From: Cirrosporium novae-zelandiae
Lineage: Eukaryota
Reading direction: 5' to 3'
Length of the DNA: 64,000 bases
Assembly: GCA_026023565.1 (NCBI GenBank)
Contig: JAPETS010000058.1
Location: forward strand, 1-64,000
Of the stretch, positions 15,690 to 56,318 are shown piece by piece. The first letter of the stretch is position 1. Every line of letters starts with the position of its first letter. The notes below the pieces were generated by a model. It did no database searches and was not told the DNA's origin. It worked only from the letters and a program-made list of their open reading frames with translations. The position numbers were made by a program, and so were the translations under genes.

Positions 15690-17285
15690 CTATCCCTTCC
15701 GGCTTCCAGATCTCAAAGTCTTCATCTCCAACCATCTGGCACAGGCAACACATTTCTCATCAACTAATCGACAAAAGATATCAGCGACCCAGAAGATTAG
15801 TGCGAGTAGCAAAGTTTCTGCCAGCAGAAACCCGATGAGATATCCTAGTACGCTTTCCTTCCCCGTTAGTGACCATAGCGCCGGGAAGAGGCGATATCCC
15901 ACGATATGGATGAGCGGACCGTGGGCAATGTAGAGGCTATAGCTGACCCAGCCTAGATACTGCACGACACGTAGGTCGAGGAAATACCGTGTGACGAACC
16001 AAGATTTGGGTGTGTGGGAGATAACGGCGACGACCATGATGGCGCCGATGGATGGGTAGAACCGCCAGCAACGTTGGTCGAAGCAGGGGATTAGCTTTCC
16101 GAGGAGGCGGTAGCCGGGGGTTCGGCGAATGCAGTAGTCTGGGGCGGAGAGAAGGTAGAGAGATGTGAAAAGGGTGGCACATCGGATGAAGTTGATCCCT
16201 ATGCGTCGCGCAAGATGGACGGGGGATTTGGAGGATGGGGATAGTTGAGTGTTTCGGGCATCGTAGAGGAGGGAGGTTTCGGCTAGGATGCTCCCGCTCA
16301 GGAAGAGGACCGTGTCCCAGCGGCTCCAGGAGTAGCAGTAGAGGACGAGGATGACAGATGTTGCTACGCGAAATGGGTATTGCAGTCTGGAAAGCGACAG
16401 GTTCGCTAGAAATAGTAGCATCGAGGAACGATACTCCATTGGGATGGTCCAAAGGTGCACATCGTATGGTGGGTAGTATTCTTCCCATTCCCAGACGTTG
16501 GTCATTTCCCGCAGCATCTGGAGCCAATTAAGAAACTGGGCGAAAAAGGTTGGAAGTCGTTCCTGGTGGTGTTCTGATTCTGCGGTGATGATGGTCTTGT
16601 CATTGGCAATTGTTCGTGTGTACTCCCACATGCCCGCTTGAATTGTAAGCATCACCATGAACGAGGCAATGGTGGTAGGTAGGAAAAGCCGGAGGGCTCT
16701 TCGAAAAGTGGAGGAGCAAAGTGTAATCAGCAGCTTGTCCCATTGCTCATTTCGTGCCAGCTGCAACGGCTTGTACGACAACACAAATCCGGAGATGACG
16801 AAGAAGATGCAAACGGGTCCTGATCCGGAGTAGACTAGGCGTATAATAGGCAATTGGTGGAATCGAAGGTTATGGGCAATTGGTTCATAGTGGTGGGCAC
16901 ACATGGGCTCCCGATGGGCCTCCTCTGAAGTAAGGCCATAACCATAGTTGACAAAATTCTGAAAGGCCGATATGATATGATAATTGACCACACAGAGAGC
17001 GGCGACTCCTCGTAGACCATCCAAAGCGGAGGTTCGCCGGAGAGTAAGTGACCGATCTGCCGAATTGGACTTGGAGTCTATGAGAGTAGAAATGAAGCTT
17101 GGGAGTAGGTAAAGACCCAACCTACAAAGCCACGAACGAATTGTTGACACATTAATATTCGTGTCTTGAAATGATCTTTTCTGTCGATGAACCTGGAAAT
17201 CTGTTTCTGTGTCTTCACCTAGTCCAAGATGTTCAAGCTCTACGGATGAGCTGCGTGATGAACGACGATCCAGTAGAGGTTCCAT
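15690..17285 (-). CDS. Membrane-bound acyltransferase-3 (OafA/YrhL-like) O-acyltransferase, about 531 aa, single exon
   Basis: Motifs LDGLRGVAA, IFFVISGFVL, RRALRL, HLWTIPMEY and YLGWVSYSLYIAHG, with many transmembrane segments. The first in-frame ATG is at 17285 (MEPLLDRR). Confidence 0.85.
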   Translation of the reverse strand: MEPLLDRRSSRSSSVELEHLGLGEDTETDFQVHRQKRSFQDTNINVSTIRSWLCRLGLYLLPSFISTLIDSKSNSADRSLTLRRTSALDGLRGVAALCVVNYHIISAFQNFVNYGYGLTSEEAHREPMCAHHYEPIAHNLRFHQLPIIRLVYSGSGPVCIFFVISGFVLSYKPLQLARNEQWDKLLITLCSSTFRRALRLFLPTTIASFMVMLTIQAGMWEYTRTIANDKTIITAESEHHQERLPTFFAQFLNWLQMLREMTNVWEWEEYYPPYDVHLWTIPMEYRSSMLLFLANLSLSRLQYPFRVATSVILVLYCYSWSRWDTVLFLSGSILAETSLLYDARNTQLSPSSKSPVHLARRIGINFIRCATLFTSLYLLSAPDYCIRRTPGYRLLGKLIPCFDQRCWRFYPSIGAIMVVAVISHTPKSWFVTRYFLDLRVVQYLGWVSYSLYIAHGPLIHIVGYRLFPALWSLTGKESVLGYLIGFLLAETLLLALIFWVADIFCRLVDEKCVACARWLEMKTLRSGSRKG

Positions 17286-18349: not shown

Positions 18350-20264
18350 TCACACTCGCACAAGAAAAGTAACAGATCCTACTAGAGCAAAGAGACATCC
18401 TGAGACTAGGAACGGTAACCCCAACCAAGGGCCTTGCAGTTGCATCCCCCAATAGAATGTGTATGAGAGAAGTGGTCCAGCAATCATACCACCGGTCGCC
18501 TCCATGACAGCAATCATAGAGTACAGTTGTGCAATGCTACTGTGGTAGCTATTTTGATCTGCAATGGATGTAACCAGACTTCGCACAATGTTGCTGTAGC
18601 CAGTACCAAGGGTATAAACAGTGAGGCCTTGGTGGCATAGTCAGCATCAGGAGCTGAAACATGAGTGAAAGGGAATGAGGCGTGTACTCACCAATGATGG
18701 TCAAAGTCGGTGTTGGTGCAAAAGCTATGATCCAAAGACCTATCATCATAGATATCACACTCCACCGAGAAATCCACAAGTCCTTAAGAGCAGCTGTAAG
18801 GCCCAATTTGTGCGACAACAAATGGCTAGCTGCTGGAATAAAGACCGAGAGAAGAAACATGTTAACACCAGCTCGAAGAGAGAGCAAATACCCTGCCTAT
18901 GATATTTGGTTACATTAATTCTAGAACATATAGGACATAGGAATCGCTTACCTGTGCCAGGGACCAACCATATCTTTTCGAGACATACTGGAGAAGAACT
19001 GCCAACGATTGCCTACCAAGTCTTGCCACTAACGATGTGAGTATCAACCAGAATACCCTCATATCTTCAGTTAACACTCTGAACGATTTATGCAGAATAG
19101 CTAATTGTTCTCGCAGCTTTGATGAATATGATGATACAATGACCTTTATATTCAGCGAATGTATTTCCTCACTATACTCAGCCTGAGACTTTTGTGGGTC
19201 ATGAAGAATAGGTTTCAACCCCGTCTCTGGAATAGCAAATGCAAAGATCAGGGACATTGCAGCTACAGCTAAGCCTAGCAAAAGAGGAATCCATATATTT
19301 TGTTCCATTAGTATCGACGCTAGGGGTGTGGCGACCAATTCCGAGGTAAGTATGCATGTTGTGACCTGACAAAATACGACCGCTCTGTAAACGCTCAGGT
19401 CAGTTGGTCTCTGTCTGATACCACAGAAGCTCTAATGCTAGATGGCATTCGGCTTTTTCAAGTCCTTTGGGTGCATATTTCCATTGGGTCAAATACCTCT
19501 CGGCCGATGAAGTGACATCTGCAATAATTGAGAACAGCATAGCTACTGTGAACTGGGATCCTCCAAAAATATAAAACAAGGAAGAAAGCCAAGTAAGTCG
19601 CAGCGGCAATTGCAGATATCCTATACCCAAATTAACTCTGGACCATGGTAAAGCAATGGGATTTTTAAAGTGACTGAAAGGATATAGCTGATTACAGATT
19701 TATGCTAATGAATCAATAATATATTACCTAGATAGGTATCATATTCAAAGCTAGGGTGAAAGACCGGATTTAACAGAACATACCAATTAGCAAGGCCCAA
19801 GCCAGTCCTAGCCATGCACCAAGCAGATTCAAGATCAACATTTGTCTTCGTCCATACCGTTGAGCAAGGAGCCCGAGTGGGATTGATAGAACGATATCTA
19901 AGTCGTATAAGTCTCAAGCTAGTTGAAAGGAGTTGATGTTCATGCCAGGGATATAATCAAAGAGGGCCTGCCATCCAAACAAAATCGCAACATCGTGTTG
20001 CACAGCATCAATCTTGCAGTACTTTTCTAGCACATTACCATGATCATCAAGATAACTTGGATCATGAACCGAATAATACTCTCTACAAACGTTGGATTCG
20101 TAAAGACGTAAGCGTGGAGTATTCGTTAGGAAAGCACCAATATCCCAAGTGACCAGAACTAAAGTACAAAAGGCAAAGACCTTGAATGATTTCGAAAACG
20201 ACTTAGGTGAGGAATCGTCATGCTCCTTGGGAATTAACAAGTTGGATTCATTTTCATCGGCCAT
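18350..20264 (-). CDS. MFS transporter (SLC46/PCFT-like, ustT-type fungal cluster efflux pump), multi-exon
   Basis: Exon 1 has RLYESNVCREYY...CK...VQ...GWQ..FD.IP. Exon 2 has motif A GLLAQRYGRR. Later exons include IIADVTSSAER, AIPET and GGMIAGPLL, joined by short introns. Confidence 0.85.
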
Positions 20265-20686: not shown

Positions 20687-20697
20687 TGCGGTGTGAT
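20687..20697 (+). promoter_or_regulatory. Candidate cluster cis-element TGCGGTGTGAT in the MFS/ABC divergent promoter
   Basis: The identical 11-mer occurs on the minus strand at 29080-29090, and the CGGTGTGA core occurs at 35265-35272. Confidence 0.35.
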
Positions 20698-21410
20698 TCT
20701 TATAACCTTACCTTCTCCGCTCTTCCTCCTTAACAGACACCATCACCTACAATTAGTTACTCCATCTCTTCACAATGCACTATCCTCTAGGGTCGAGTCT
20801 AAATACAATAAAGTTGATTAAAGTGCACAATACATATGCGGCTGGAATTAGCCGACCCAAATTGCATTTTACAACAATTCTTTGCACTTGAACACCAGCC
20901 ACGGTGGCCACCTTGATGAAACGAGATCTTTCATCCAACTGCTTAGCTTGAGCGTCCTCCAAAGCCACTGATGAGTAGCACTTTGCAACTTGGCTAGGGC
21001 TCTGATCTCACGTGATGGACAACTAACCAATTCTGGGGCTCCGGCCTCTGTTAGGGGTTTCCCTGTTTCCAAAATATTCTAGCCTTGAATCCCAAAAATG
21101 GGGCTGAGAGATTGAAGAGGTAGATCAATGTTCTAAAACAAGCAAGTTGAAACTTGAAAGTTGGACGGTTGAAATGGGAGATCAGACGGATTTATTTTTG
21201 TCATGGCATAGACGTCAACTCAGCAGCAGGGAACCGTCTGCCCTGGAAATTACCCACAGACGTAAACGGTCTAATGGTCCGTACACAAAATCTACATATA
21301 TCTAGTGAGTTCGTCAAAATGACGTCTATATTCAGTATTCCTGATTTTGCACATTCTTTTGTGTTGTTTTATTCGTTCATTTTTTCTTCGATACATTCAT
21401 TATCCGAACC

Positions 21411-24400
21411 ATGTTCAATCTTGGTATTTTTTCTCAGAGCTCGACCCTTGCGGGACGAGGTCGTAATCATTACTACGTTCATATCGAAGATGAAGAAACC
21501 GAGACTGAGGGAGTTGATGAACATTTACCCCAACAGTCCCTTGACCTTTCAGGCTTCAGCTACAATCCTCTTCAACTATGGCTTACACCTCTCATGCGAC
21601 GGGTGAAGGCAGACAATTATTACGACGAAGCAGACCTTCCAAACTTTGGGAAGAATTCTCGTTACCTACGTTCTTTTGCTCGACCTTTATACCAAGGAAA
21701 TTATTTTGCTCTTCTTCTGACATCCGAGGTAGGGTGGCCTCTTGTAATATCGGGTATCCTTGAGGTAAGAGACTATACCAAATCCATTCGATGGCAATGT
21801 TGAAATTTCTCTAGTTTATATCCTCATGTTGTGCCTTGTCTGCACCACTTGTACTTCATGAAGTACTTTCTTCACCAAAGACCATTCATCTTGCTGTAAT
21901 TCTGTTTCTAGTTACCATATTCGCAACTTTGACTGGCCGTGCGAAGGACCAAATTTGCCGTGTTTTGGCGGCAAGACTATCTGCAATGCTTCAGTCTGCC
22001 ATTTTCGAAAAGAGTCTACGGCTCTCAAGTCCTGCACGAATGGATCACTCTGTTGGTAATATTATCAGCAGCTCTACCAATGATATGGTTTTCTTGCGAA
22101 ACTATTTTGTCAAGGTTCATGATATCTGGAGCGGTCCATTCCAATTAATTGTAATATTTTTCCTTGTGGTGAAGATCATGGGTCCATCAGGATTAGTTGG
22201 TGAGCAAGTATTTGATAGCTACTTTAATTATAACTGATCATTGCGTAGGCTTTTTTGTCATGATAACTCTGCTAGCCTCCCAAAACTTAGCAAACTCCAA
22301 AGTACAGGCTTTTATTCTAAGCTACTTGAATCTAGACGAGGAACGAATCACACAAATAACACAGACATTTCAGCGAATCAAAGGAATCAAGTCTCTTGCA
22401 CTCGAAGAGACGTTCTCGAGAAACATCAATAAGATACGCGAGAGCCAGCTACTTTCCTTGTGGCAGCAAATGCGACTGACTTTCTGCTTTTTTACATCCA
22501 TTAATCAGATGACTCCAGGTTTAGTAGCCATGGCCTCATTTACTACTTATTGGTATGCCGGAAATAAATTGACTGCAGAGGTTGTATTTCCTGCCTTTGC
22601 ATTCTTTGAGATGAGCTTCTCACCCGCTTCTAAACTGTCATTATCCATCACTCGTCAATTTGCTGTGCAGCCATGCCTTCGGCGAATTACGTCTATACTG
22701 AATGCCGAAGAAGACTTTACTGTACCAGTTCCTTGTCTATCCCCCCAAGATGCCGTGGTGTTGGATAGGGCCACATTTCGATATCCAAAATCCAAGGTTC
22801 AATCAGAGGCTGATTTCACGCTGGGCCCTCTAAATTTGCATCTTCCGCTAAATAAGCTTACTATGGTTGTAGGACCCAGTGGCTCTGGAAAGTCGACACT
22901 GTTAGCAGCTATTACCAGACAGTGTGTGGCAGATGCCAATTCGATCATACAGACTAGTGGCAGTATAGCTTTGTGTTCCCAGGAACCATGGATCATATCA
23001 GGAACGGTGCGCGAGAATATTCTCTTTCGGTCAACCCTCGATGAAAAGCGATATCGCCGTGTGCTCCATGATTGCTGTTTGGAGCAAGACCTTTTGACCT
23101 GGGAAGGGGGAGATGAGATGATGGTCGGAGACAATGGAGCGAATCTAAGTGGCGGACAGCGAGCACGCATATCTCTTGCTCGAGCCGTGTACAGCCAGGC
23201 CGACATTATCTTGATGGATGATCCCTTATCGGCAGTCGATAGCCGCATTGCAAAATGTCTCTTTCATGGATGTATTCGAAAGCTTCCTCAAACAGTCGTT
23301 CTAAGTAAGTGGAAGGCTAGGTTATTATAATTATTCTATGACTAACGGCATATAGTTACCCATCAGCTCTCTTTCCTCAAGCATGCAGATGTTGTTCTGG
23401 GACTTGATAATGGATCTCAAAGAGAATATGGTACCCCTAAAGACCTCTTGGATCTCGAACATGGCTTTTTGAGATCGATGGTATCCAAACAAGAGTCTAT
23501 TAACCCAGAGGAAAAGGATGACTTGGACACGGATAATACTCCAGGTGTAGACCCGGAGATTTCCTTGGGTTCTGCACGAAAACCCAAAGATGAAGAGCGC
23601 ATGAGAGGCAGTGCCGATACTCGGTTATATCGCTTTTACAGCGAATGCGCCGGAGGACGTTCTTTTTTGTTAATTTTATTATCCATCTTTCTGTTGACAA
23701 TATTAATTCGAACCATTAGTAGCATTTGGTTTACCTGGTGGATTGATGATGATTTACAGCTTGACCAAAATTGGTACATGGCAGGCTATGTATTGCTAAT
23801 TTTATTCCAGACTGCAGACGTTGGTAAGTTGGGTATATTGAATTTGTGTTATGTAGCTAACGATAACGCAGCATATCTTGGGTTGTTTCTTGTCAAGGGC
23901 AGTGTGCAAGCGAGCCGGAGAATCCATTATGAGGCCATGAGACGTCTTCTAGGTGCACGCATTGAATTCTTTGACAACCAGCCTCTTGGGCGTATCTTGA
24001 ACCGACTTTCCAACGATATTCAAGCTATTGACTTTCGATTGATGAACTCGGCCGACGCATTCTTCGTCTCAGGAAGTTCGCTTTTGGCAGCGACAGTGGT
24101 GCTCATGATTTCGTCACCATATCTGATACTTGCATTTATTCCAATCTTCTACTCGAGCTACCTCATCCAAGAGCTCTATCGCGCGTAAGTGTATGTCCAG
24201 GTTTCTCTTATCATCTATTGACATCTCCAGGTCCGCTCGTGAACTCCGGAGGTTGTGTTCAATTCTCGACTCTCCAGTTTTAGCCGTTGTAAGCGAGACA
24301 TTAAGTGCTGTGCCGTCTCTCAAGGCATATAAAGCAGAGTCTTTCTTCATGGATAAACACGAAAAAGCCTTGGATCGTGCCATGGCTTCAATGCTCGTCA

Positions 24401-25779
24401 GATATTCTTTGGAAACTTGGATAACCTTCCGAGCAGAGTTACTATCTGCCGCAGTGTTGGGATGCGTCGCCCTGTTGACCGTATGTGGTTTCGTGTCCAA
24501 AGAACAAGCTGGGTTGGCACTTGGGATGACAGTGACACTGTCAAAGTATGTTCACCTGTTTCTCTGGGCACTCATCAATGTGGAAGTAGAGATGAACTCG
24601 ATAGAGAGGCTGGAGCAATATATGGTGCATACTCCTACTGAAAGGGCTACTTCTTTTGAAGAGGTAGGACTTCCAGACAGTGTATGGCCCAGGAACGGTG
24701 ATATAGAATTCTCGGGCGTGGACCTCCAATATCCCGAAAGCGATAGAATTGCACTCAAGAATCTTAATTTGAAGATATTCGGTGGCCAACACATTGGAAT
24801 TGTTGGCAGAAGTGGTTTGTACCCTTTGTCCAACCATAAACGCGTATTTGCTGAGATGGCTCAATGCTGACATGACTAAATTCAGGATCCGGAAAATCCA
24901 CCATCGTCTCAGCCCTGACTCGTCTCACCGAAATCAAAAAAGGCTCCATCACAATCAGCGGAAAGAACATAAGCGATCTACCCATCCAACAACTCCGCCG
25001 CGGCGTCCACATCCTACCACAAGAGCCCGTCGTCTTTTCGGGGAGCCTTCGCAAGAATCTAGATCCCTACGATCAGTTTGACGATGCCTCACTCTGGGGT
25101 GTTCTCGACGCATGCGGTCTCTTTGATTTCTTTCGAAAACAAACCCCAACAACAACCCATCAAGACTCCCCCTCATCTACACCTCAAACCACCAACGCCA
25201 ACAGCTCTAACACTGATCTCCTAAATTTCCCCATCCACGCCGACGGCGGAAACCTATCCCGCGGACAGGTTCAATTAATCTGTCTAGCGCGAGCCATGCT
25301 CTTCCAACCAAAAATCTTAATCCTAGATGAAGGTTAGTTCCATCCCCATCCTCACCCCCACCCAAACTCCCTAAAAATAAAAATAACTCACTCACCCTCA
25401 TCATTATCATCATTTAGCAACCGCATCAATAGACCCCCAAACCGACTCCCTAATCCAAGAAACCCTCCAATCTCATTTCCCCATCGATACAACAATAATC
25501 TGTGTCGCCCACCGCATTTCCAGCGTGGCGTGGATGGACCGTATTGTTGTGATGGACTCCGGGGAGATGGTTGAGGAGGGGGATGTGCTTGACCTACTAC
25601 TGGCTGGCGAAGAAATGGATGGGAGCGGGGAGAAGAAGGTTGGTGGTAATGGTGGATACTACAAAGATCTGGTCATGCAATCGGGTGGAAGGGATCTGTG
25701 GGAGGCTATGGCGTTGGTGGCTAGGGAGAGAAGATTCGGTAGCGTTGGAGATTTGGAAAAAGGGAAGGGAAAGCAATGA
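21411..25779 (+). CDS. ABCC/MRP (YOR1-like) ABC transporter, TMD-NBD-TMD-NBD, about 8 exons
   Basis: Lasso-like WLTPLM. NBD1 has GPSGSGKST, LSGGQRAR and IILMDD. TMD2 has FFDNQPLGRILNR and MNSIERL. NBD2 has GRSG^SGKST, NLSRGQ and ILILDE^ATAS, with AHR at the H-switch. Confidence 0.92.
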
Positions 25780-26204
25780 TATCGTTTCCCATTCTTTTTT
25801 TTATTGTTTTATTATAGATGTATACTACTGTACCCTACACCTCTACTCCTGTCTACTATATGTATGTAAGAATGCAACAAAAGAAAATTTTCTATTTCTT
25901 TTTTATATAATTTAAAATCTTAAATTCCTAAATGCATAATAAACTCACCACACTCCACCACTCCATCGCTTCAAAATACCTTTTATCTTTATTTTTATCT
26001 CTTTCTTCATCATTATCCATAAACATTAAACAACAGTAAAAAAAAAAAGGGGACAAACTCATCCTATCCTTAATTTTATAACAAAGGTTGTGTGAGATAA
26101 TTGGAACTGGGATTCGAACGAGAACGAGGAAACTGGGATTTGGGGGATTGGGATTAGCATTAAGCATTAAGCATTTCTAGTCTGAAATGTGTGAACTCGT
26201 TGTT

Positions 26205-26206
<2 letters not shown>

Positions 26207-26242
<36 letters not shown>

Positions 26243-26243
26243 T

Positions 26244-26276
<33 letters not shown>
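26207..26276. repeat. Adjacent homopolymers, about T35 then G31, within a low-complexity spacer (about 25.8-27.7 kb)
   Basis: Direct reading. Run lengths may be sequencing artefacts. Confidence 0.85.
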
Positions 26277-26277
<1 letters not shown>

Positions 26278-41500: not shown

Positions 41501-44500
41501 GCAATCACTGACGGATGGTCCTTTAATATTATCCTACATGAACTCTCAAAAGCGTATCAAGGAAATGAGCTATTCAACGGGCCATCTCCTTCTGAATTTC
41601 TGGCTTTTGATATGGGGCGCGACAAGTCAGAGGCAAAGAAGTATTGGCAACATATGATGGCAGACTTTGATCCATACTCATTCAGCTCTAGCGATGCGAA
41701 AGCTATTAGATCAAATGATATAACACCATCTACATTACGAATGAATGTGAAGACTCTTCATTCTGATGTGGTTTCCCAGTATGCTCGATCTGTTGGCGTC
41801 ACTCCGGCCACTATCTTTCAGGCCGCAATGGCCATTCTTCTCTCAAGAGCTACGAACAGAAAGGATGTCGCTTTTGGAGTTACAGTTAGTGGACGAACAT
41901 CTCCAGTAAATGGACTTGCTGACACGGTTGGCCTTTTCATGAATACCGTCCCTTTGAGGTTATCTGTTGAGGCCTGTGAGGATGTAAACAAATGGCTCCC
42001 GGATATTTCTAGAATCTTTTCAGCCGGCATGTTATATGATTATGTTTCCATTTCCGAAATCTTTTCCGACCATGCCTCGCATGGAAAGCTATTTGACTCG
42101 ATATTGGTATATGAGAATTACGCCACAGACACCCAAGATTTATTTGGGGAGAATCTCGCATTACAAAAGATTGATGGAAGAGAATTTTCAGATGTGCCTT
42201 TTATGATAGTAGTTGAGCATGTACTATCTGGCACAGACATTACCTTCAAATGGAACTCGTCGCTCCTCACAACACAGCAAGCATCCTCATGGCAGCTTCA
42301 GTATGCATCAATCGTAGAGGATATAATTTCTGATCAATCATTGCCATTGACAGTTGCCAATATAGGCCAGAAAAAACCATACGCCGAGTTACAACAATCG
42401 GTTACGGCCTACGAAAACTTGAAGCAATGCTCCAAAAATGTCGACTCTAGCGATACTCTAATATCACTCTTCAAGAACACCGTCTTAAAGAGTCCGGATA
42501 GTACAGCACTGGAAACACCAACAGGAAGCATGACATACAAAACCTTAGATCATGAGTCAGACGTTGTTGCTATGAAGCTACTAGAGTACGGGGTCAGTCA
42601 AGATGACATTATTCCAATTATTTTCTCTAGATCAACCGATATGATCGTGGCAATGCTGGGTGTCATGAAAGCTGGTGCATCATATTGCCCAGTAGATGTT
42701 CACACGCCAACTATGCGCCAGTTATTGTTGATCAGGAAAGTCGAGGCGAAATTTGTGCTCGGACAGGTTGATCACATGAGTGGCCTCTCAGCCATGCAGG
42801 ATTTGGTCTCCTTGAGCTTCCGGTTGCTCTTTTTTGACGACTTGCTTGAGGAGAGCATTGAAAATCTCGAACAACCTCTTCCGAAGATATCACATAACCA
42901 AACTTGCTATGTACTCTTTACTTCTGGGTCGTCAGGACAGCCCAAAGGATGCATTCTAAGTCACAGAGCTGTAGTAAACGTGGTTAAAGAGACCTGCAAA
43001 GTTTACCACACAGATTCATTTTCACGGGTATTGCTTTTTGCCAATTACATTTTTGATGCTTCAGTTGTTGATATATATGGTTGTCTCTCCACCGGAGCTT
43101 CGCTATGCATCGCTGATAGCGAAGATGTGATGGGTGATCTAGAGGGAATGGTGAACAGAATGCGCATCACCTCACTCCATCTCACTCCGAGCGTCATCAA
43201 GCTCCTCGAGCCAGATCGATGCACCTCCTTGAAAACATTGATATCTGGTGGCGAAAAATTGCCTCTTGCTGTTCGTGATACGTGGGCAAGCCGGGTTAGG
43301 TTAATTGATGGCTATGGACCTAGCGAGACAGCAGTTCAGGTTTCGGCAACGCTAGTTGAACCATCAAACCCTACCTCCGTCATTCCTCAACCTTTACCTG
43401 GGAACTTTCTTATTGTCTTGGATAGTCATCTCAATATTGCCCGAGTAGGGCAGGTCGGTGAAATATTCATTGGCGGTGTCCAGCTTTTCGAGGGCTATGT
43501 CGGCGACCCAGCGCTCACCTTGAAGGCTTACATATCTTCTCCCTTCGATACAGGGTCTCGATTATATCGTACTGGGGATTTAGGGCGATTTACTGAGGGG
43601 ATGGCAATCCAGATCCTTGGACGAAAAGATAGCCAGATCAAGTTTTCCGGCCAGCGAATCGAGGTCGAAGAGATTGAAAGCATTCTCAATTCGGCTCCAA
43701 CTGTCGCTCGCTCTGCTGTTGCCGTCTATGAAAGTCAACTTTGTGCTATCGTGCAAGCCAAATCGTCTAAGTCAACCTGTTCGATTGAGAGCTTGAGCTC
43801 GTTTTGTGCAAACCGACTACCTACTCTACTGGTTCCAACTAAGATTATTTTGGCAGAGGTTCCTTTAACTGCTAGCAAAAAGATCAACCGAAGACAGGTT
43901 CATGAAGATTTATCCACTAGGAAAGCTGAAAATAACAAAAAGAAGTCCTTGGACTCGCCATCTCTAACACCGGAAGAGGAATTCATTAGTTCCGTGGTTG
44001 AGAAAATACTTGGACGCCCAGTGACGGATGTCAATCTGGCTTTCCCATACATTGGCCTGAACTCTCTAAGCTTGATGCAACTGAGAGGGGTACTAGCCAG
44101 AAAGTACAGTGAGCCTTTGACATATTCACAACTCAGCAGAGCAGGTAACATCCGGAAGCTAGCAACCATGTTGAAATCAGCAAGGACGTCAGATATCACT
44201 ACTAGAAAAATCAAAGAGCAGCCAGTTACTGGTTCCTTTCCAGCACTGCCTATGCAGTCCCGGATGTGGATGGCACAAGAGAGGCTGCAGGACGATACGT
44301 ACAATGTCTTTAGTCTAGCTGAAATCGAGGATGTCAATTCCGAACGACTTTTGGAAGCATTAAAGAGTCTTGTGGAAAAAGTTGATATTTTCAAGATAAC
44401 GTTCTCCTGGAGCGACAAGGACAATTTGCTATATCAAAACTTACATGACTTACCACGAGCTCGCATCTTTATGAGGGATGTAAGTCACTTGGATAAGCCC

Positions 44501-47500
44501 TTTGAAGAGATTCAATCCCAATGTATTCTGGACAACAAACTGGTGTTTGACCTCCACAAAGGACCCCTTGCGCATTTCACAATCTACAACTGTGGGTTTG
44601 GAAAATGCTTCCTTTATTACAATATTCACCATATTCTTGTCGATGAATGGACTTGTCAACAGATTCTGGCCTCGCTGTCTAGAATCTATTACGATGATCG
44701 ATGTGATATTCGCTTTATTTCGGTCACTAATGCAGCGCAATCTTTCCAATCGTTATTCACAGAGGAACAGGCGGCAGGCCGTGTAGCCAAATTCGTGGCG
44801 ATGTTGGAAGATATTCCAGTATTGGATACTAAAGATTGGCCGGAGCCGTCAGTTGACTGCATTGATCGACAAACGCATACTGTCTCCCGCAAACTACCGC
44901 GAGCTAAGATTTCCTCTTTTATGAATACTTGTCTTACCGCAGGTATATCGCAATTTTCATCTTTTCTGTCACTCTTCCAACTGGTAATGCATCGGTAAGT
45001 TCAATCACGGAACGATATTAGTCCTTATCCTCGAAGTTCAAAGATTCCAAGAGCATGGATTTGCGCTAACGTGAGTAGGTACACTGCTGCAAATGATTTA
45101 TCGGTTCTTATACCTATTTCCACTCGAGGTAGTGATCCAGAAATGGCAGAGGCTCTTGGGAACTTTACCAACACTGTCCTGGTCCGATCTAATCTGCAGA
45201 AGGATGATGCGATCAAAGACTTTCTCAGAAGAACAGCAGATTTCGTTGATTTCGCCATGGATAACTCATTGGCTCCCCTGGAAGAGATTCTCTCTTATCT
45301 ACACTCTTCTGTGTCTGAGCATTCCGTAATGTTCGTCTTTAATGAATCGTTGGCACAACCGTTCAAGACCATGCGCGACCAATCTTCAAAAATTTCCATT
45401 GAACAAACAGCAATGTTTGATATTTGCTTCAATATCACAGGCCAGTTAGAGGATGTGTCGATTGAATTGCAATACAATACTGGCAAATTTGACTCGCGCT
45501 TTATGGAAGGTCTTGTTGAGTGTTACCTGAATCTGATCACGAGTTTGGACTCTCAAATAGACCACAAGGTACAAAGTTTGAACTTCTGCTCACCTACTCA
45601 TACTTCGTTAATTGATCGACTCTCAAACCTTGAAAGTGTGAAAGAGCCAGTTTCAGATTGCCTCCTCCATGAAATATTTGAGCGCCAAGCACAGGATACC
45701 CCCGATCGTATTGCAATCGATTTCTTGGATCGTGGGCAGATTCATGGCACAACATATAAGGAGCTCAATGAACGCGTAGGTTCCCCAGTTCCCCCGCCCA
45801 CAAATGTACTGACACTTTCTAGGCATCCGAAATTTCGGCAGTTTTAAAAACAAACTACGACGTTCAATTTGGTGATATCATACCGATATATGCCGACCAA
45901 GGCCCGGAATTTGTGGCAGCTTTATTGGGTATACTGAAGTCTGGAGCTGTATATACGCCTCTACCTAGGGACAGTACATCCTTAGCGAGAGCTGTCAGCA
46001 TAACCCAGAAATGTAACGCAAAAGTGGTCATTGCTGATGTGTTCACTATTGATGGCCTCGAAGTGTCAATTTTGAACGTCAACAAGCTTCCACAAATTTC
46101 ATCGGGAAGTGTAACGCCAACTAGCGTGACATCATCGCAAATTTCCTCAGATTTCTTTTCACAAAGAGTGGTAAGTGATAGCATCGCTTACATAATATGG
46201 ACTTCCGGAACCACTGGCATCCCAAAAGGAGTTCAAGTTACTCATGCTGCGGCTGTAACAGCTTTCTATGTTACAGCGAATGAAGTCTATGGTGGAATCC
46301 AAGATCGTGTTTTGCAGTTCTCAAGTCCGATGTTTGATGTATCACTCGAAGACATCTTCACTGCATTTGCAAGAGGAGGCACAATATGCACGGCGCGAAG
46401 TCATGATTTACTCTACAATATAGAGACTGTCATTTCTGCTTTGAAACCTACAGCTGCTGGTCTGACGAACTCAGTGATATCTCTCCTCGATCCAAAAACA
46501 ACACCCTTGAGGATACTTGTCGCAGGTGGAGAGCCTCTCTCTGGAAAAGTCAAACAAGCATGGATTGGCTCTTCAACTCGCCTCATCAACGGCTATGGCC
46601 CAGCAGAAAACACAGTCCTTTCGTAAGTGGATTTTCTCTAGACTTTCATTTCCAATGCTAATTTCTATAGTACATATTCCGAAGTTCAAGATTCTACCAG
46701 TATCTTGTCAATTGGGAGACCTATTTCTTCGGTCACCGCTTTTATCTTAGATTTATTTGAGAATCTCAGCCTGCCATATGTCAGAGGGGAAATTTTCCTC
46801 GGTGGCTCGCAGCTATTTGATGGCTACTTTTGCGAGCCTCAACTCTCTGAGAAAGTATTAATTCGACATCCCCGATATGGTACACTCTATTCAACGGGAG
46901 ATATAGCATACTACGATAATGACGGCAACATTAATATATCTGGTAGAGCAGACGATCAAGTCAAGATTCACGGACAGAGAATTGAACTTGGTGGTATTGC
47001 TTTTATGATTGAACAGCAAGCTAATGTGAAACGAGCAATCGTAGTCAAACATGCTGAACAGCTTGCTGCATTTATCACATGGACCGAGAATCATAAGACT
47101 ACTTCTATGGATGATTTTGCAATTCTAGATATCAAGGAGCCGAGAGTACGAGAACTGGTAGACTTCCTTACAACTAAACTCTCGTCTTCGACGGTGCCTG
47201 TGGTCTGGGTAGAAATTAACTCGGTACCCATGACGTTGAGCGGAAAGATTGATAAATCTCGCCTCAAATCAATGTTAGGCAATATTCGCACATCTACAAC
47301 TGACGAGTGGGTTCCGCCAGAGGGTGACGTCGAGCAGTCTTTGCATGACTGTCTCTGTCAGACTCTCAATATGGACTCGGTCAGCGTGCTAGCAAACGTT
47401 TTTGAGCTCGGAATGGATTCATTCCTGGCAATGGGTTTCATCTCCCGAATCCGCAAAGTCCTCCCACAATTTTCGGTGAATTCCCGCGACGTTGCCGAAT

Positions 47501-50500
47501 CTCTGAATCTACGATCGCTGGCTCGCCGGATTCAGTTAAATTCAACTGTGTCTATTGGCACTACTATGCAGATAGAAGTTCCACCTACTTCACAACTATT
47601 CGATTCCATCGAAACTCCCATTCCTGCAAGTTCAATGCAAGAACGATTCTATTTGTCTCAAATGGTCTTCGGAGATGCTACCTATAATTTACCTATAGCT
47701 TTTGAGCTTGTGGGCATTGACTTCGAAAGGTGGCAGCACGCTTTTGAGGACATTATCAAAGAAAATGCAATATTTCGCACATCTTTCCAATACACAGATC
47801 GATTGTGGCAAACCATACACAACCCTAAGAAATCGGATTTTAAAGTCTACAATTTCGAACATTTAGACTCAGAGGATGCCAAATGCCAAATGCAAAAGAT
47901 TTGCCAATCTGATGCTGGCCGATCATTTGATCTTCAGAAGCCATATCCTATTCGCTACAGGGCGTTCTTGGTTCCACAAGACAAAAAATACGTCTACATT
48001 AATATGCATCATATAATTGCTGACGAATTCTCAGTACAATCAATGCTGGCAGATCTCACTTCAAGATCTGCTGGCTTCGGTTATAAGGAAAAGTCTCAAG
48101 TACATGCAGCTCAATACGCAGATTATTCTACAGAGGAAGCGCGCATACTAGACGATTCTCTCAAGGTAAATGATTCATACAACTTCTGGAAAGTCTATCT
48201 TTGTGATGTTGCACCAACTATTCTCCCTCCACTAGCCTCATCCCAGGTCTACGAAAAGACTCACGGCGTCTTCAATTTTGATTTCAGTATACAGAAAAAC
48301 TTCTTGAATTGGTCGAAACGAGAAGGCATGACCAATTTTTCGGCTCTCCTATCACTTTTTGAGATTTTACTTTCTCAGATCTGGAATAGTAATGATCTAT
48401 CCGTCCTTATACCTGTGTCTCAGAGGCCATTAAACTCTCCCGACCCCTTCTATGGTTGCTTCATTAATACTTTACCTATCAGAGCTCAAGTTGACGGCTC
48501 GCATACCCTTGAGGACACTCTCCGTCGACTTACTAGAGAATTACTCGATGTTTTACAAAACTCTGTAATTCCCTACGAGAAAATACTTGGGCATGTAGGT
48601 GCCGACAAGGGCATGTTCAAAATCATGTTTGTCTATCACGAGGAACATCAGAGCCCTGATTCCGGTTTCCTACCTACACATGATATTCTCTCCAAGGAAC
48701 CAGAAGGAGTAGCGCCCAAATTTCCCGTCACCTTTTCGGTTAATCTAGCTCAAAAGGACACCAATCCATATATTAAACTCACAGTTGACTATGATCGCAC
48801 CAAGATCGATGATGAAAGTATAGTCATTCTCTGTGAACACTTTGAGACCTTGATTTCTGCAACCGCGCAAGCTTCGCCGCAAACTCTAGTAGGGTGTCTC
48901 GAGACATTGACCAATTCTGAAGCTATTATAATACATCAAAGTCTTCAATATCAGGTCAGCAGTGAACAAGAACGCTTTTATGTTCATAATCTGCTAGAAG
49001 CACAGGTGGCGCAGAATCCAGACAAGATCGCATGCGAGTTCGAGGGTCAACACAGGGTGACATATCGCGAACTCTGGGCCAAGATTGAGAATATCAGCAC
49101 ATACCTGGACACATATGCTACAGGTAGCAACGGAAAAGTTGGTATCTTTATGGAGGCTGGGTTCGACAGGATCGCTGCAATATTCGCCACTGTCAAATGT
49201 GGCATGACTTATGTTCCTCTTGAGGTAACTCTGCCTCCTGCAAGAAATGCATTTATAGTCGAGGATTGCAATGCTCGTGTGATTCTAGCCTCCGGTTGCC
49301 AGGAAAATAAATACCGACACGCTCTCGAGCAGCTAGATTCTGCCAAACCAAAACACATTCCGATCTGCTTAATTCCCGATCCAGTTCCCGTTCAAAAGAC
49401 CCCTACTCAAATAAACCCAAAAATTAAGCCCTCGGATCTTGCATATGTCTTGTATACGAGTGGATCAACCGGAAAACCAAAGGGAGTGGAGATTCCACAT
49501 AGTGCTCTCTCTAACTCGGTTAAAGAACACATAAAGCTTTACCGTTTGGACTCAAGTAGCCGCCTTTTACAATTTGCACCATGGACCTTTGATGTATCTG
49601 TCGTTGACATATTTGGCACACTTGCTGTTGGTGCCACTCTCTGTCTAGGACGCAGAAATTTCCTTCTTTCCCAATTCGAGGATGTGTTCAACATGATGCA
49701 GGTCACCCATATTGCCACCACACCCACAGTAATTAAATTGTTACCACCGTCAAAAGCGCCTTCTCTAAAGGTTCTTGCAATAGGTGGTGAGCCAATGACC
49801 AAGGGAGTACGTGATTTGTGGTCCGAAAGAGCTTTACTGCTGAATGTGTATGGACCAACCGAAACAACAGTTAATGTTCTTAGCTGTGTTGTCAAGCCTG
49901 ACTCCAATACAAGCATCATCGGGAAATCATTGGGTAATGTTCAAGCTCTTATACTAAATGAGCAGCTTTCAGAGGTGCCCATAGGCTGCATTGGCCAATT
50001 AGCAATTGGTGGCCCTCAGGTAGCAAGAGGCTATCTTAACAGGCCCAAGGAGAACAAGTCATTCATTGAACATTCTAGATTTGGAAGATTATATCTTACA
50101 GGTATGTGTAATAACTTACTCTAAAAGGGCTATGCTGACAGATGATAAGGTGATCTCGCAAAATTCACCAAGGATGGATCTGTACTTTGCTTAGGCCGAC
50201 GAGATACGCAAGTTAAACTCAGGGGCCAAAGGATTGAGCTTGGTGAAATAGAAGATATTGCCACAACTTGCCAGTCAATTCAGAGAGCTACGTCTTTTGT
50301 AGTGAACAAAGGACAGGCTGAAGGATTGGTCTTGTTCTTCACTATGGACTCGGACAACACGTCTACAGCCTCTGGTAATGGTAAAATGGAATTTCTGTCG
50401 TTAAGTAAGGTTGAAGCTGTAGTGGAGGAAGCTTACCAGACCATGACCCAGAAGTTGCCCCCATACTTCATCCCTAAATATTGGATACCTTCATTGGCAA

Positions 50501-53500
50501 TGCCCACGAATGCAAACGGGAAAATTGATCGAAAAGCAATTACCAGATTGGTGATGGATCTGAGTGACTCGGAAATTAATGATTTTATCTATCGCAAAGA
50601 GAGCCAAACTACCTCTAGCCTGCCATTAGTTACAGACGCGGAGAAGGCCATCGCGGAAGCAATGAAGAAGGTTCTAGGCACTGATAAGATTGACGCCTCC
50701 AGCAATTTCTTCTCCCTATCCGGAGACTCTATCTCGGCAATTCGTCTGAATAGTACACTCAGATCTGTGGGATATTCCATTACCGTCCAAGATATCTATG
50801 AAAACCCTGTTGTCTCACAGCTGGCCGCCTCCGTCATGTCCAGGACTACTCCAAATGACCAGAGGATCAATCTCAGCCCCGCTCATGGAAAGCTACATGG
50901 AACACCAATTATTGAATGGTTTTTCGGGTTGCAGAAGCAAAACCCACATTGGTATAACCAGAGCTACGTACTCAGGATGAAAGATATGGGAGCATTGCAG
51001 AACATGCCAGCAGCTTGGGCTAAGGTGGTCGAAGTACATCCAAGTCTACGCCTAAGATGTGATCTTAGCTCCGAAAAGGCTGCTGTACACATCCCAGAAT
51101 TCACTTCAAGCACTGACTGCTTGGTGACAGAGCATGGAATGTCTTCCATGGATGAATTTTCGGAGTATTTGAAAAAAGCACAGTCATCTCTTTGCATTGA
51201 AAATGGACCGATTTCAGCACTTACCTTTGTTACAACCGCTGAAGATACTTATTGTATCATTGCAGTACACCATCTAGCCATAGATATCGTGTCCTGGCAG
51301 ATCATCTTTGATGATCTAGAAAAAGCCTTGAGAGGAGAAACAATTGCACCAGAATATAACTCCTTCCGGTCATGGTCTCTGTACGTTCAAGAGCAACAGA
51401 ATTCTCGAAAAGCTTCAAATTACCTTCCAGAAGTAGACACCTCTCTACCACCCGTCCGCACCAATTCTGGGATCCTTGACGACTTTGCAGGAAAGATGGA
51501 CAAGAATACTAATGCATCTGCTCGGATAATCAATGTGGAACTCTCTTGGGAACTCACAAAGTCTTTCTTGACAACTGCCAATAAACCGTATCGTACGGAA
51601 CCTGTCGATTTACTGCTAGCTTCCCTAGCCATGGCAATGTCCAAGTGGCGACGTCTTAGCTTGTTCGAGGTCATTTTCGAATCGCATGGCCGAGATTTCA
51701 AGAATAGGAGCCTAGACTTTTCCAGAACAGTAGGATGGTTTACATATCTTTTCAAGATACTCTTGACTATAGATCACGACACCTCTATTGGTGATTTTAT
51801 TGCTCACGCAAAAGATTCTAGACGTGCAGCGAACCAGGCCCTTGATTTTACGCACGACGCAGCAGTCCGCAGTCAGTATCCTACCATCATGTTCAACTAC
51901 CTTGGGTCTTATTCCAGAGAAGAATCGGGTACTTCATTCAGCATGGTCCACAGAGAGGAATTAATGGGAGCAGTTGAAGACCCTAACAATCTGCGACCCT
52001 CCGTACTAGACATTAGTTGTGCCGCAACCGACGGAATCTTAGACCTGAGTGTTATATTCAGTGATGCTCTTCATACTGAAGATGATATCCAGGTTTTGTT
52101 GAACGCTTGGCGTGGGTCGCTACAGGAAATCCTCGATTTCTGCTCTGTCCATGAAAACGAAACTGTATTTACGGGAAGTGACTTTCCGATGTTGCCATTT
52201 GATGCCGGGAGCATAAACCAGTTGGTAGAGAAATCTCTGCTACCACAGGGTATATCTGTTGATTCAGTCGAGGATATTCTTCCAGCGACAGGTATGCAAA
52301 ATGCAATGCTACTAGCAAGCCAAGAGTTTGGATCCTATCAAGAAATGTATCGCTATCGTATCGAAGGAAACTTGGATTGTGCAAAATTCCAAGCAGCTTG
52401 GAGCCAAGTTATCCGCAAACACAGTTCGCTAAGAACCGTCTTTATACCTTGCGACGGATTTCAAAGCGTGCTGAACAGCGAACTACTGCAAGTCATTATT
52501 AAACCTACACATTTCAATGTGCAAGTGAGTCTAGAACGACCCCAGGAATCCAGCCCAGGCTTTGAGTATGGCCAACCACTTATTCAGCTGTCTCTTTATA
52601 AGATAGGAGCAGAGCAATTTGAATTCTTATGGACCTGTCACCATGCAATTGTCGATGGTTGGTCAATGGGTGTTATCATGAATGACCTATACCAGGCTTC
52701 TGGCAACAATCTAAGCCAACATGCGCTCCAATTCAAAGACATTGTTGCATTTGTCAATGCTGAGCATAACCAGGACCAGACGAAAAAATTTTGGCAAAAT
52801 GAGTTAAACGGTCTCTCTCCTACTATTTTGGTCGATTATTCAAACAGCCCACAACAGCAAATTCCCAGTCCGCAGAATTCGCGCATCGTTCAGAGCTTAC
52901 ATTGTTTAGCAGAAGATGCGAAACTGTGTGCTGCATCACGAGGAATGACCATATCCTCTCTCCTCAGAGCGGCATGGACACTGGCGCTTTCATTTCATTG
53001 CGGCGAAAATGAGGTAAGTGCATTTTTAATAATTGATAGGTCATAAGACCTTAATATGTAAATCAATATACTGATAATGAGTACTCTAGGTCATGTTTGG
53101 TGTCACTTCTTCGGGGAGACATTATAACATTCATGGGATTGAGGGGGCCGTTGGACCTTGTATCACCACTGTTCCGTTTGCAGTGAACATTGAGTCAGAA
53201 TCTACACTCGATGTTTTTCTAGAACAGATCAAAAAGAAGGATTCCGCTATTCTTTCACACCAGTCTATGTCATTGGGACAGATATACAAGGCGACAAATT
53301 CTACCAACCTCTTCAATACTCTTCTGATTTACCAGAACCATCCGAAATACGATGATAGAACAGCGCAACCATTCTCTATGCATCTAGAATATTTCGAGGA
53401 GACAACAGATGTTCCATTGAATCTTTTAGTCGGACAGAATAATGACAATGAATTGTCTGTCACAGCACTGTTACATGGCAATCACTTCTCGGACAAATTT

Positions 53501-56318
53501 ATGAAAGGTGTCATTTCAAGCTTTGGCATGGCTTTGCAGCAAATATGCCACAACCAAAATCTTACACAGACCAAGATTAGAGAACTTGACTTGCTGGACA
53601 AATCATTCCATCCCAAAATTGAAAAGAATGAGCATGAATGGTCAAGTCAAGATCTGTCAGTATGGAACTTGTTTGTTCAACAATCAATGAAAACACCAGA
53701 TAAGGCTGCTTTGGAATTCTACTCTTCTCAGGGAATGGAATCTTTGACTTATTATCAGCTGCTAGAAATGTCTAGGAGAGGTGGCGCAACTTTGAGAGCT
53801 GCAGGTGTTACGAAAGGAGGTCGAGTTGTACTGTATCTTGACAAGTCTTTGGAAACAGTTGCAGCAGTATTTTCCGTGCTCTCAATTGAAGCTGCCTATG
53901 TACCGATTGAAGTTGGCACCCCTGTGGATCGAATTTCCGAACTGTTGCAGCAGTCAAATCCAAGATTGATTATCACTTCCAGTCAATCCGCATCACTCTT
54001 CTCTCCATCAGGTCGACAGGTGTTACCCATAGAAGATATCTTCAATCAAGAAAATGACATTTCAGGCCCACCACAACAACATGAAGATGTATCTAACGAT
54101 CTAGCAGCAGTCTTGTTCACCAGCGGTACTACAGGTGTTCCCAAAGGAGTCTGTATGCCAAATCGGCAAATTGCTGGATATGCTTTGAACATGGTTGAAG
54201 CATATGGATATGATCAAAACAGCGTTATATTCAATTTCGCAAGATACATATTCGACGTGTGGATTACCGATGTATTTGGCGGCTTCTGTTGCGGTGCTAC
54301 AGTGTGTATTGCAAACCAGAAGGATACCGTCAACGATCTGACGTCTCTTCTGAAACGATCGCGAACAACTGCCATCAATTTAACATCATCAGTAGCGGCA
54401 CTACTTGACCCAGAGGAACTACCTGATTTGAAATCAATGGTTTTAACTGGCGAGCCTGCTACTAAACATCTCATAAGCCTATGGGCCCCAAAGGTCTATC
54501 TCGTCAATTCTTATGGTAAGCACCACAATTCTCTAACTTGTCATTTTATTAACTTTGATAGGCCCTACTGAGGCTGCCGTTATTGCCTGGACGGATGTTC
54601 ATTCTTCTAGTGATAGCAGATGTGTTGGTAATGCTGTAAGAGGTATGGATATAGTGATCTTGGATGATCATCTTCGAAAGGTTCCTGTCGGCGTTCCTGG
54701 TAACCTATACACGTCTGGATTTCAACTATCTCTTGGTTACTGGGGTCGACAAGATTTGACAGCAAAGGCCTATGTGAACAGTCCGTTCGAAAAGGGCACA
54801 ATAATGTACTCCACTGGTGATATCGGCGCCTACGATTCAAAGGGAAAAATCCTTCTCTTGAACAGAAAAGACAAGCAAGTGAAACTAAGAGGTCAAAGGA
54901 TAGAGCTTGGAGAAATCGAAAACGCCATTCGACAGGCACATCCCAGAGTTACAGTGTCTCTGCTTCCAGACAAGCAAGGAATTCAACAGCTTATTGCGTT
55001 TTTTGAGTCAGACTCTGATGATGTTGCATTAGAAGTCAATCGCCAGCTTACTGAGCTCATTCATCGTGAGGCCCGTCGACTATTGCCTAGTTACATGGTT
55101 CCGGCAGCTTATATTCCATTGCGTCAAATACCACTCACAGTCAATGGCAAAGTTGACAGCAGGACACTAGAAAGCATATACCAAAGCCATATTGATTCGA
55201 CAACGTTATCCAAGCAAGCTCAGCAAAGTACCCGACAAAATCTCACCACAACGGAACGCGCTTTACAAGAACAAGTCAAGAAGATATTTGGCGTCTCCGA
55301 CATGTCTATTGATGTCGACCTCACCACGTCCATTTTGGACTCGCTATCATCAATGCGGCTGGCTGGGAGCCTGCGACGCTTTTTTAAACTTCCCATCAAC
55401 CTGAAATGGATCATGGAAAATCGCACGATTGAAGACCTAGCCAGTAAAATTGATTCACACATTGCATCACGCGATCAAATGACCGTCGCGCAGCCAGAAC
55501 CAACTAGTTCTTCAGCTGTGGTAGAGTCTGTCGTTGAATTCTCCAAGCTTGACGGGAATACTGTCAAAAAGAGACTGTTCTGCATTCATCCAGCATCAGG
55601 TCTTTCATTTGAGTTCCGGAACCTCGTCAAATACCTACCACACATGAGTATAACCGGAATCAACGACCCTAACTACGGAGTCAAAGATGCATATCCCGAC
55701 ATTCCTACTATGGCAAAAACATACGTAAGTCTCCCCAACAAGACCAACCAAACCGTACCATCCCCCATTCTAACAAAACCTCCTCTGTAGCATTCCATAA
55801 TCACCAAACTCCAACCCACAGGCCCCTACTACATAACAGGCTACTCCTTCGGCGGGCACGTCGCCCTCGAACTGGCCCGTCTCCTCCACCAATCCAACAA
55901 CAAAGTAACCCTTGTCCTGGTCGACTCCTCCGCCCACAACCCACCCCCACCATCCATAACCCCCCGCCTCGTCTCCTCTGTCATAAACCGCTTCGGCATG
56001 AAACCCCCCAACGCCTCCTGCACCCCAGAAGAACACAATCTCCGCACCAACATGGTCGCAGAAGTCGAACGAAACTTGCATCTCATGAGTCGCTATACCC
56101 CCCAGCCATATGATGGGCCCGCGGTGTTTTTGAGGGCGTATGATGACGAGGAGGAGGAAAGGACGTTTGTGGGGGATCGGTCGAATGGGTACGAGGCTGT
56201 TATTGGGGACTTGGAGGTTTTACCACTATATGGGAATCATTACAAGGTGTTTACGGATAAGAGATTTTTGGATCATAATGCAGGGGTTTTTGGCACTGTT
56301 TTTGATAATGACAAGTAA
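35515..56318 (+). CDS. Hexamodular NRPS A-T-C-A-T-C-A-T-C-A-T-C-A-T-E-C-A-T-TE, 10 exons, about 6,747 aa
   Basis: Introns at 36407-36459, 36774-36865, 44995-45078, 45776-45822, 46623-46670, 50102-50149, 53014-53089, 54516-54561 and 55725-55790 give a 20,244-nt in-frame CDS. It has six TSGS/TxGxPK A cores. T motifs are GLSSL, GGDSI, GLNSL, GMDSF, SGDSI and ILDSL. C motifs are HHISMDE, HHAITDG, HHILVDE, HHIIADE and HHAIVDG. E motifs are HHLAIDIVSW, ESHGR, SRTVGWFT and FNYLG. TE motifs are LFCIHPASG, GYSFGG and GNHY. Confidence 0.95.

Follow-up and report, generated by a model that had tools for sequence, protein, structure and literature searches.

An orphan non-ribosomal peptide synthetase gene cluster with two 2-oxoglutarate oxygenases and a P5CR homologue in Cirrosporium novae-zelandiae

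Cirrosporium novae-zelandiae belongs to the Xylobotryomycetes, an isolated class of ascomycetes. We analysed a stretch of 64,000 nucleotides of its genome (contig JAPETS010000058.1, hereafter the window), in which a gene cluster around an NRPS (non-ribosomal peptide synthetase) extends from 15,690 to 56,318. An initial annotation, made from the sequence alone, had listed eight genes there, i.e., an acyltransferase-3, an MFS and an ABC transporter, an APH-family phosphotransferase, a pyrroline-5-carboxylate reductase (P5CR), two 2-oxoglutarate (2OG) oxygenases, called OG1 and OG2 here, and the NRPS, and had regarded them as one complete pathway to a hexapeptide containing modified prolines. Pfam scans of the long open reading frames (ORFs), together with a set of 143 from 17.3-35.4 kb, found all eight genes in their places, the support for the MFS gene being weak. 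Six of them form three divergent pairs (MFS/ABC, P5CR/OG1 and OG2/NRPS), as had been described. The window is fungal in character, its introns being short, with GT..AG ends and branch sites of the CTRAY form. The NRPS, two of its domains, and the three genes that we assign with it to the core of the cluster are as follows, where A, T, C, E and TE stand for adenylation, thiolation, condensation, epimerisation and thioesterase domains:

35515..56318, + strand: NRPS, 10 exons, 6747 aa, six A domains
50917..52215, + strand: putative E domain, NRPS residues 5011-5443, after T5 and with a C domain directly next; Pfam Condensation match, HHLAID motif
55572..56315, + strand: TE domain, residues 6522-6747, interrupted by the last intron; PF00975
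33867..34917, - strand: OG2, 323 aa, exons 34563-34917 and 33867-34483; divergent from the NRPS gene, 597 bp apart
31434..32594, + strand: OG1, 336 aa, exons 31434-31616, 31695-31862 and 31935-32594; DIOX_N and 2OG-FeII_Oxy (Pfam)
29497..30477, - strand: P5CR homologue, 306 aa, exons 29870-30477 and 29497-29809; divergent from OG1, 956 bp apart

A six-module synthetase with a terminal thioesterase

The NRPS gene is assembled from exons 35515-36406, 36460-36773, 36866-44994, 45079-45775, 45823-46622, 46671-50101, 50150-53013, 53090-54515, 54562-55724 and 55791-56318. Its nine introns (46-92 nt) have GT..AG ends, the joined frame stays open, and in each of the 30 chunks scanned with Pfam the profile coordinates continue from one side of a splice site to the other. 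The resulting domain order is A1-T1-C-A2-T2-C-A3-T3-C-A4-T4-C-A5-T5-E-C-A6-T6-TE. A modular NRPS is recognised by repeated A-T-C modules that carry the A3, A5, A7 and A10 (Lys) motifs, the serine of the T domain and the HHxxxD of the C domain. The 30 chunks contain A, T and C-like domains, six of each, with six A3 motifs, HHxxxD in each of the C-like domains (6/6) and the serine in each of the T domains (6/6), as in a modular (type I, collinear) synthetase, and the six modules of the initial annotation thus stand. The first domain is an A domain, from residue 21, and the NRPS therefore has no lipo-initiation; the domain scans also bear out the absence of a T0/C starter, of an acyl-AMP ligase and of a C(T) end. 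The C-like domain behind T5 gives a TIGR01720 match (E 3e-16, 59.7 bits) that stays under the cut-off of 74.2, and a regular-expression (regex) search of the NRPS found no EGHGRE-type motif. We read it as an epimerisation domain because of the TIGR01720 match and because a C domain follows at once; a single epimerisation step of this kind would agree with the proposal of at least one D residue in the product.

C(T) domains are the typical release end of fungal cyclic-peptide synthetases. Here, the last 226 residues are a TE domain, which had been overlooked at first. Its PF00975 match in the last exon reaches 42.3 bits (E 1.4e-10, cut-off 26.4), the profile continues from position 55 to position 59 over the intron, and both a GYSFG nucleophile motif (of the GxSxG form) at residue 6589 and a C-terminal GNHY are present. 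The NRPS therefore does not simply lack a release domain, and judging from these motifs its terminal TE is plausibly catalytic. According to the accessible parts of two studies, TE release is known for only few fungal NRPSs (PMC2823734), and TE domains are not rare among fungal NRPS-like genes overall (PMC10212144). The window NRPS is among the less common fungal multimodular NRPSs with TE release. The ten-residue codes of its A domains, read by hand, begin with Asp in six of six cases. Such a leading Asp binds the alpha-amino group, and the codes are compatible with an alpha-amino or imino acid at each of the six positions. A regex reading differs from the hand reading at code position 278 of A2 and A5.

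NRPS residues 403-1602 were used as the query of a full HMMER scan over a library clustered at 50%, with 1.84 billion representatives. A single relative stood out, P0241, with 1685 bits versus 1250 for the runner-up. By BLASTP, P0241 is 42% identical to and collinear with NRPS residues 1-5420, i.e., modules 1-5 and E. Two of its five A domains could be read by regex: the code of A1 is identical to that in the window, and that of A3 differs at two of ten positions. P0378 comes second, with four modules and 32-37% identity, and the remaining relatives among the 150 matches listed lie at 24-31% identity. P0241, collinear over modules 1-5 and E, could belong to an already characterised cluster, of which the present one would be the orthologue, and the full-length search spanned only proteins of 4742-5000 aa (its matches, at 22-25%, were uninformative). 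Such an orthology is nevertheless very improbable in our view, as no representative exceeds 42% identity and, because the library is clustered at 50%, it holds no characterised NRPS above about 50% identity. Nor did searches of the literature on the gene set, the architecture and the genus (subscription-only papers lie outside it) turn up a cluster of this composition, and the genus-level search listed no natural-product paper. No close characterised NRPS is therefore visible, in line with the initial annotation, which had recognised no characterised cluster of this gene content. The six-module Scedosporium NRPS SAPIO_CDS6317 was considered and rejected for its different architecture, having its E domain after module 3 and a terminal C domain (PMC6737921, accessible part).

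Two oxygenases, a P5CR homologue and their linkage in other genomes

Proteins P0121 (OG2) and P0391 (P5CR) carry the NCBI names M1834_007985 and M1834_007983, 'MAG: Cirrosporium novae-zelandiae'. In tblastn, P0121 is 100% identical over exon 1 of OG2 and 96.7% over a second match that runs into the intron; exon 1 of the P5CR gene is 100% identical to P0391, which also has 306 aa. The PF22814 match of OG2 is weak (E 4e-5), and by sequence the Protein Data Bank (PDB) gave no clear relative (best relevant E 0.013). Its AlphaFold (AF2) model, with a mean local confidence (pLDDT) of 88, has WelO5 (5j4r) as best Foldseek match (E 1.2e-11, TM-scores 0.65/0.74, 13-15% identity), and a structure search of the Atlas likewise returned the WelO5 fold (TM 0.74/0.90). 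In the WelO5 halogenases, the carboxylate ligand is replaced by Gly or Ala (HxG/A), which opens the halide site. In OG2, this replacement is absent: the triad H188, D190 and H275 stands unchanged in all 32 aligned relatives, and on this ground we reject a halogenase function for OG2. Since HxD...H is kept, we take OG2 for a hydroxylase, and from its residues it should hydroxylate and not halogenate. According to a 2022 review (PMC9144378, accessible part), no fungal member of the WelO5 class had been characterised. Many ascomycete classes have OG2 relatives at about 60% identity, and chytrids have them too (51-52% identity in Thoreauomyces humboldtii and Powellomyces hirtus), a breadth unusual for a gene of ascomycete secondary-metabolite clusters.

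From its sequence, OG1 falls in the thymine-7-hydroxylase/UcsF subfamily, whose members carry out repeated oxidation of a methyl group. In the PDB, the matches of its last exon include thymine dioxygenase (5c3p) at E 2.9e-43 and UcsF (9ktp) at E 9.6e-35; over the last 219 aa, identity is about 45% to the former (by eye) and about 40% to the latter, and the iron ligands of OG1, HTD and a distal His in the HxD...H arrangement, align with those of both enzymes. The reductase has the two domains of the P5CR family (F420_oxidored, PF03807, E 2e-7; P5CR_dimer, PF14748, E 1e-21), and its two exons, scored singly, reach 97.5 and 66.7 bits with TIGR00112, whose cut-off is 196.75. It belongs to a small clade: 18 matches lie at 37-56% identity, the named ones fungal, after which identities drop to 35% or less (36 matches from 301 candidates). 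Enzymes of these two kinds act together elsewhere, UcsF and DetxE converting L-Ile to 4-methyl-P5C, from which P5CRs make 3-methylproline (PMC8233208, accessible part), and EcdK taking Leu along the same route towards 4-methylproline (PMC7778625, accessible part). A swainsonine-type use of P5CR (PMC8403587, accessible part) was rejected, there being no SwnK-like polyketide synthase-NRPS at the locus.

Linkage of these genes was followed in metagenome contigs, which were scanned with an alignment of the 32 OG2 relatives. This yielded 18 loci, whose neighbouring genes were sought by tblastn with the window's proteins, near-identical loci being merged; for five loci, which have 101 ORFs, a Pfam scan covered 57 of these. 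In five of the 18, OG2 has an OG1 homologue of 34-44% identity at a distance of 0.03-2 kb, and three of the five are independent (L003/L004/L005; L008; and L007, whose 5-kb contig is scrambled). An NRPS paralogue, with 25-32% identity, is found at most 10 kb from OG2 in another set of five loci, four of them independent (L001, L010, L016/L017 and L018). In L005 (9639-18064), the order is OG2-OG1-P450-P5CR, as also in L003 and L004, and the surrounding 10 kb contain no NRPS. Gaeumannomyces hyphopodioides has, to judge by locus tags, its OG2 homologue (RB595_003618) adjacent to a P5CR homologue (RB595_003619).

Several of these loci have further features. In L005, the immediate upstream neighbour is a LINE-like retroelement (endonuclease, reverse transcriptase, RNase H), and beyond it comes a gene for a beta-eliminating lyase. 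In L008 (2170-8585), OG2 and OG1 homologues, a POT/PTR2 peptide transporter and an S-adenosylmethionine-dependent methyltransferase stand in tandem, on a 9.3-kb contig without an NRPS. L011, L012 and L013 contain second OG2 copies at about 8-11 kb, with about 84% DNA identity to the copy of L003-L005. Two of them match query residues 31-272 only, and around them lie remains of copia/RNase H elements and a large gene with TPR repeats; these copies look like decaying paralogues.

Accessory genes and borders of the cluster

The four remaining genes, and an element beyond the end of the NRPS gene, are as follows (TMD, transmembrane domain; NBD, nucleotide-binding domain; MITE, miniature inverted-repeat transposable element):

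27692..28915, - strand: APH-family kinase, single exon, 407 aa; PF01636, 63 bits versus a cut-off of 23.2
~21300..25779, + strand: ABC transporter of full size (TMD-NBD-TMD-NBD), 8 or more exons, with an approximate 5' end; ABC_membrane twice, ABC_tran twice
~18353..20264, - strand: MFS-like gene, multi-exon (at least 5 short exons) membrane protein, exon limits approximate
15690..17285, - strand: acyltransferase-3 (Acyl_transf_3, membrane O-acyltransferase family), 531 aa, counted from 17285, where the first ATG lies
56515..56800, no strand: MITE-like element, 26-nt terminal inverted repeats 56515-56540 / 56775-56800, 92% complementary, ACTAG/ACCAG units

The APH family is defined by a catalytic HxDxxxxN and a downstream Asp, and both are seen in the translation of the kinase (HKDLHYAN and ILDWE). 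It has weak APH(3') and GntI matches (E about 1e-6), and no relative in the PDB at E 0.01 or below. Both NBDs of the ABC transporter contain Walker A, the LSGGQ signature and Walker B, as expected of a full-size protein. The MFS-like gene is the weakest call. Members of the superfamily are recognised by a significant profile match over 12 transmembrane segments; here, MFS_1 matches one 173-aa exon (18913-19431) with E 0.012, the exon has no match by sequence in the PDB, and its look-alikes in the Atlas all come from MFS-clan families (scores 0.91-0.95). The acyltransferase-3 ORF (15693-17321, - strand) matches PF01757 with E 7.8e-17. These four genes are tied to the core by adjacency alone. 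The kinase and the acyltransferase could serve in tailoring or in resistance, or be unrelated to the pathway, and acylation or phosphorylation of the product, both of which had been suggested, are purely conjectural.

The cluster is divided by an AT-rich spacer of 1.9 kb between the ABC and APH genes (25.8-27.7 kb, GC 0.357), with the acyltransferase-3, MFS and ABC genes in one block and the APH, P5CR, OG1, OG2 and NRPS genes in the other. The spacer (25800-27690) contains one ORF of 186 aa (26495-27052, + strand) without a family match. Neither a Zn2Cys6 nor another regulator was detected by Pfam inside the cluster interval (143 ORFs), and some 11 kb to the left of it there is an ORF with a C2H2 zinc finger (3655-4545, - strand). 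The left flank, which the initial annotation had described as decayed, is indeed poor in ORFs and AT-richer (5-15.7 kb, GC 0.39-0.43). There, TpA/ApT is 0.87-0.99 and (CpA+TpG)/(ApC+GpT) 1.13-1.16; because of the latter, the signature of repeat-induced point mutation is only weak, and a strong action of that process is unsupported by the dinucleotide ratios. On the right, the border agrees with the initial description: the MITE-like inverted repeat is followed by FMO-like, HCO3_cotransp (BOR1-like) and ETF genes. The FMO-like flavin monooxygenase gene (56950-58484, - strand) lies just past the 3' end of the NRPS gene and the MITE-like element, and could be a further tailoring gene or a border marker.

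Proposed pathway and comparison with known systems

With about even confidence, and on sequence and family evidence, we interpret the locus as an intact orphan NRPS cluster with NRPS, OG2, OG1 and P5CR as its core, the product being a TE-released hexapeptide that would contain alkyl- or hydroxy-proline. The divergent pairing of P5CR with OG1 and of OG2 with the NRPS counts for this core. The architecture, motifs, family assignments and recurrent linkage are observed; which substrates are used, in what order the steps run, how the product is exported and what the kinase or acyltransferase may do is inferred. The NRPS would assemble a hexapeptide aa1-aa2-aa3-aa4-D-aa5-aa6, and the TE would free it by hydrolysis or by head-to-tail cyclisation. 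By analogy with EcdK, UcsF and DetxE, OG1 would oxidise the terminal methyl of Leu or Ile twice to an aldehyde, which would cyclise to a methyl-pyrroline-carboxylate and be reduced by the clustered P5CR homologue to 4- or 3-methylproline. OG2 may put a hydroxyl on the imino acid or on the peptide, and the ABC and MFS proteins may export the product.

Several observations weigh against this interpretation. The P5CR of L005 shows no BLAST similarity to that of the window (best E 0.085), and the recurrence is therefore one at the level of families and not of orthologues. Only one named genome, besides that of the window, occurs in both the OG2 and the P5CR match lists, and the OG2 family is not specific to such a pathway, its relatives being very widespread. 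P0241, the only ortholog-like NRPS, stops exactly after E, without C-A-T-TE (module 6 and TE), at a place spanned in the window by a continuous exon (50150-53013, E to C6); this could reflect a split gene there, a fusion in the window or a truncated gene model. The hand-read A-domain codes are not known to match any proline code, fungal codes being poorly predictive according to the accessible part of PMC10212144. P5CR homologues in fungal clusters can make pipecolate instead (PMC10512319, accessible part). Finally, with matches up to E 1 admitted, not one of the 18 loci has a relative of the APH, ABC, MFS or acyltransferase-3 gene beside its OG2 relative. The 'complete' eight-gene cluster of the initial annotation is hence not supported: linkage to OG2 recurs elsewhere for OG1 homologues (three independent loci) and paralogous NRPSs (four), and these four genes show no conserved linkage.

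This last result, the AT-rich spacer that parts the two blocks, and the lack of a pathway-specific transcription factor among the ORFs scanned in the interval would also fit a pathway made of the NRPS alone, perhaps with OG2. The other genes would then be chance neighbours or have other functions, and the peptide would consist of proteinogenic residues, tailored later if at all. A P5CR-family gene by the OG2/OG1 pair in two further genomes is unlikely to arise by chance, and the three divergent gene pairs have short shared upstream regions, which makes us doubt this explanation strongly. The main rival, itself unlikely, is a supply of pipecolate, in which P5CR would reduce lysine-derived piperideine-6-carboxylate to L-pipecolate, and OG1 and OG2 would act as hydroxylases on pipecolate, on proline or on other residues, whether these are free or already within the peptide. 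Neither 2OG enzyme has an assigned substrate and no A-domain code is proline-like, and the clustered P5CR homologues of apicidin F (APF3) and KK-1 (kk1I) are assigned to pipecolate (PMC10512319, accessible part). Yet this route requires no methyl-oxidising oxygenase, and OG1 is of the thymine-7-hydroxylase/UcsF type, divergently paired with P5CR and recurring with OG2 and P5CR in L005; moreover, the 143 ORFs scanned revealed no gene for a lysine aminotransferase or a saccharopine oxidase. The modified-proline idea is favoured by the subfamily of OG1 and by the recurrence of OG2, OG1 and P5CR-family genes together, and left without support from the A-domain codes. All in all, the initial interpretation was largely reasonable and is partly supported.

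A bolder possibility, which we think improbable, is that OG2-OG1(-P5CR) is a portable, undescribed fungal cassette that makes a new hydroxylated alkyl-imino acid for different NRPSs across Ascomycota, the APH kinase phosphorylating the hydroxyl in the present case. If so, the outcome would be a phosphorylated peptide or a hydroxyl activated for elimination, both unusual for a fungal non-ribosomal peptide. With respect to the preferred reading of an orphan cluster with a four-gene core, a new hexapeptide from the Xylobotryomycetes would be expected if the genes are expressed. Of most use beyond the cluster itself is the observation that a WelO5-fold hydroxylase and a UcsF-type oxygenase recur as a pair. 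The cluster further points to fungal hydroxylases of the WelO5 fold as a widespread and so far uncharacterised family that travels with UcsF-type oxygenases and NRPSs, and assigning its reaction would help the annotation of many fungal clusters.

When compared to known systems, the cluster is one more orphan fungal NRPS cluster and not a new kind of system. The echinocandin and pneumocandin synthetases (EcdA/GLNRPS4) are six-module fungal NRPSs as well. EcdA has a T-C starter and a C(T) end, whereas the window NRPS begins with A and ends in TE. Echinocandin-type acyl-AMP ligase, P450 and homotyrosine genes are also absent here, with no separate AMP-binding gene among the 143 ORFs. The echinocandin 2OG oxygenase EcdK/GLOXY4 turns an aliphatic amino acid via an aldehyde and a pyrroline carboxylate into methylproline, like the route proposed above, and a second 2OG enzyme (HtyE/GloF) hydroxylates proline-type residues, in likeness to the role suggested for OG2; P5CR is encoded in the window cluster, unlike in echinocandin clusters, which have no such reductase gene (PMC7778625 for all three, accessible part). 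The second oxygenase of the window also differs in being of the WelO5 fold and not of the DIOX_N type.

The combination of a UcsF-subfamily oxygenase with a cyclic-imine reductase is the one known from UCS1025A (UcsF/UcsG) and from destruxin/isaridin (DetxE and P5CR). The Beauveria P5CRs are housekeeping enzymes encoded outside the clusters, whereas in the window a divergent P5CR homologue is clustered and OG2 is added. APF3 of apicidin F and kk1I of KK-1 are likewise P5CR-family genes that supply a cyclic imino acid from within a fungal NRPS cluster (PMC10512319, accessible part); assigned to pipecolate, they have no UcsF-type oxygenase as partner. ACV synthetase is another fungal NRPS that starts with A, has an E near its end and releases by TE. 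It has three modules and an E directly before the TE, whereas the window NRPS has six and the end E-C-A-T-TE. Lastly, OG2 has its fold in common with WelO5, a cyanobacterial carrier-independent Fe/2OG halogenase, and differs from it in keeping the carboxylate ligand.

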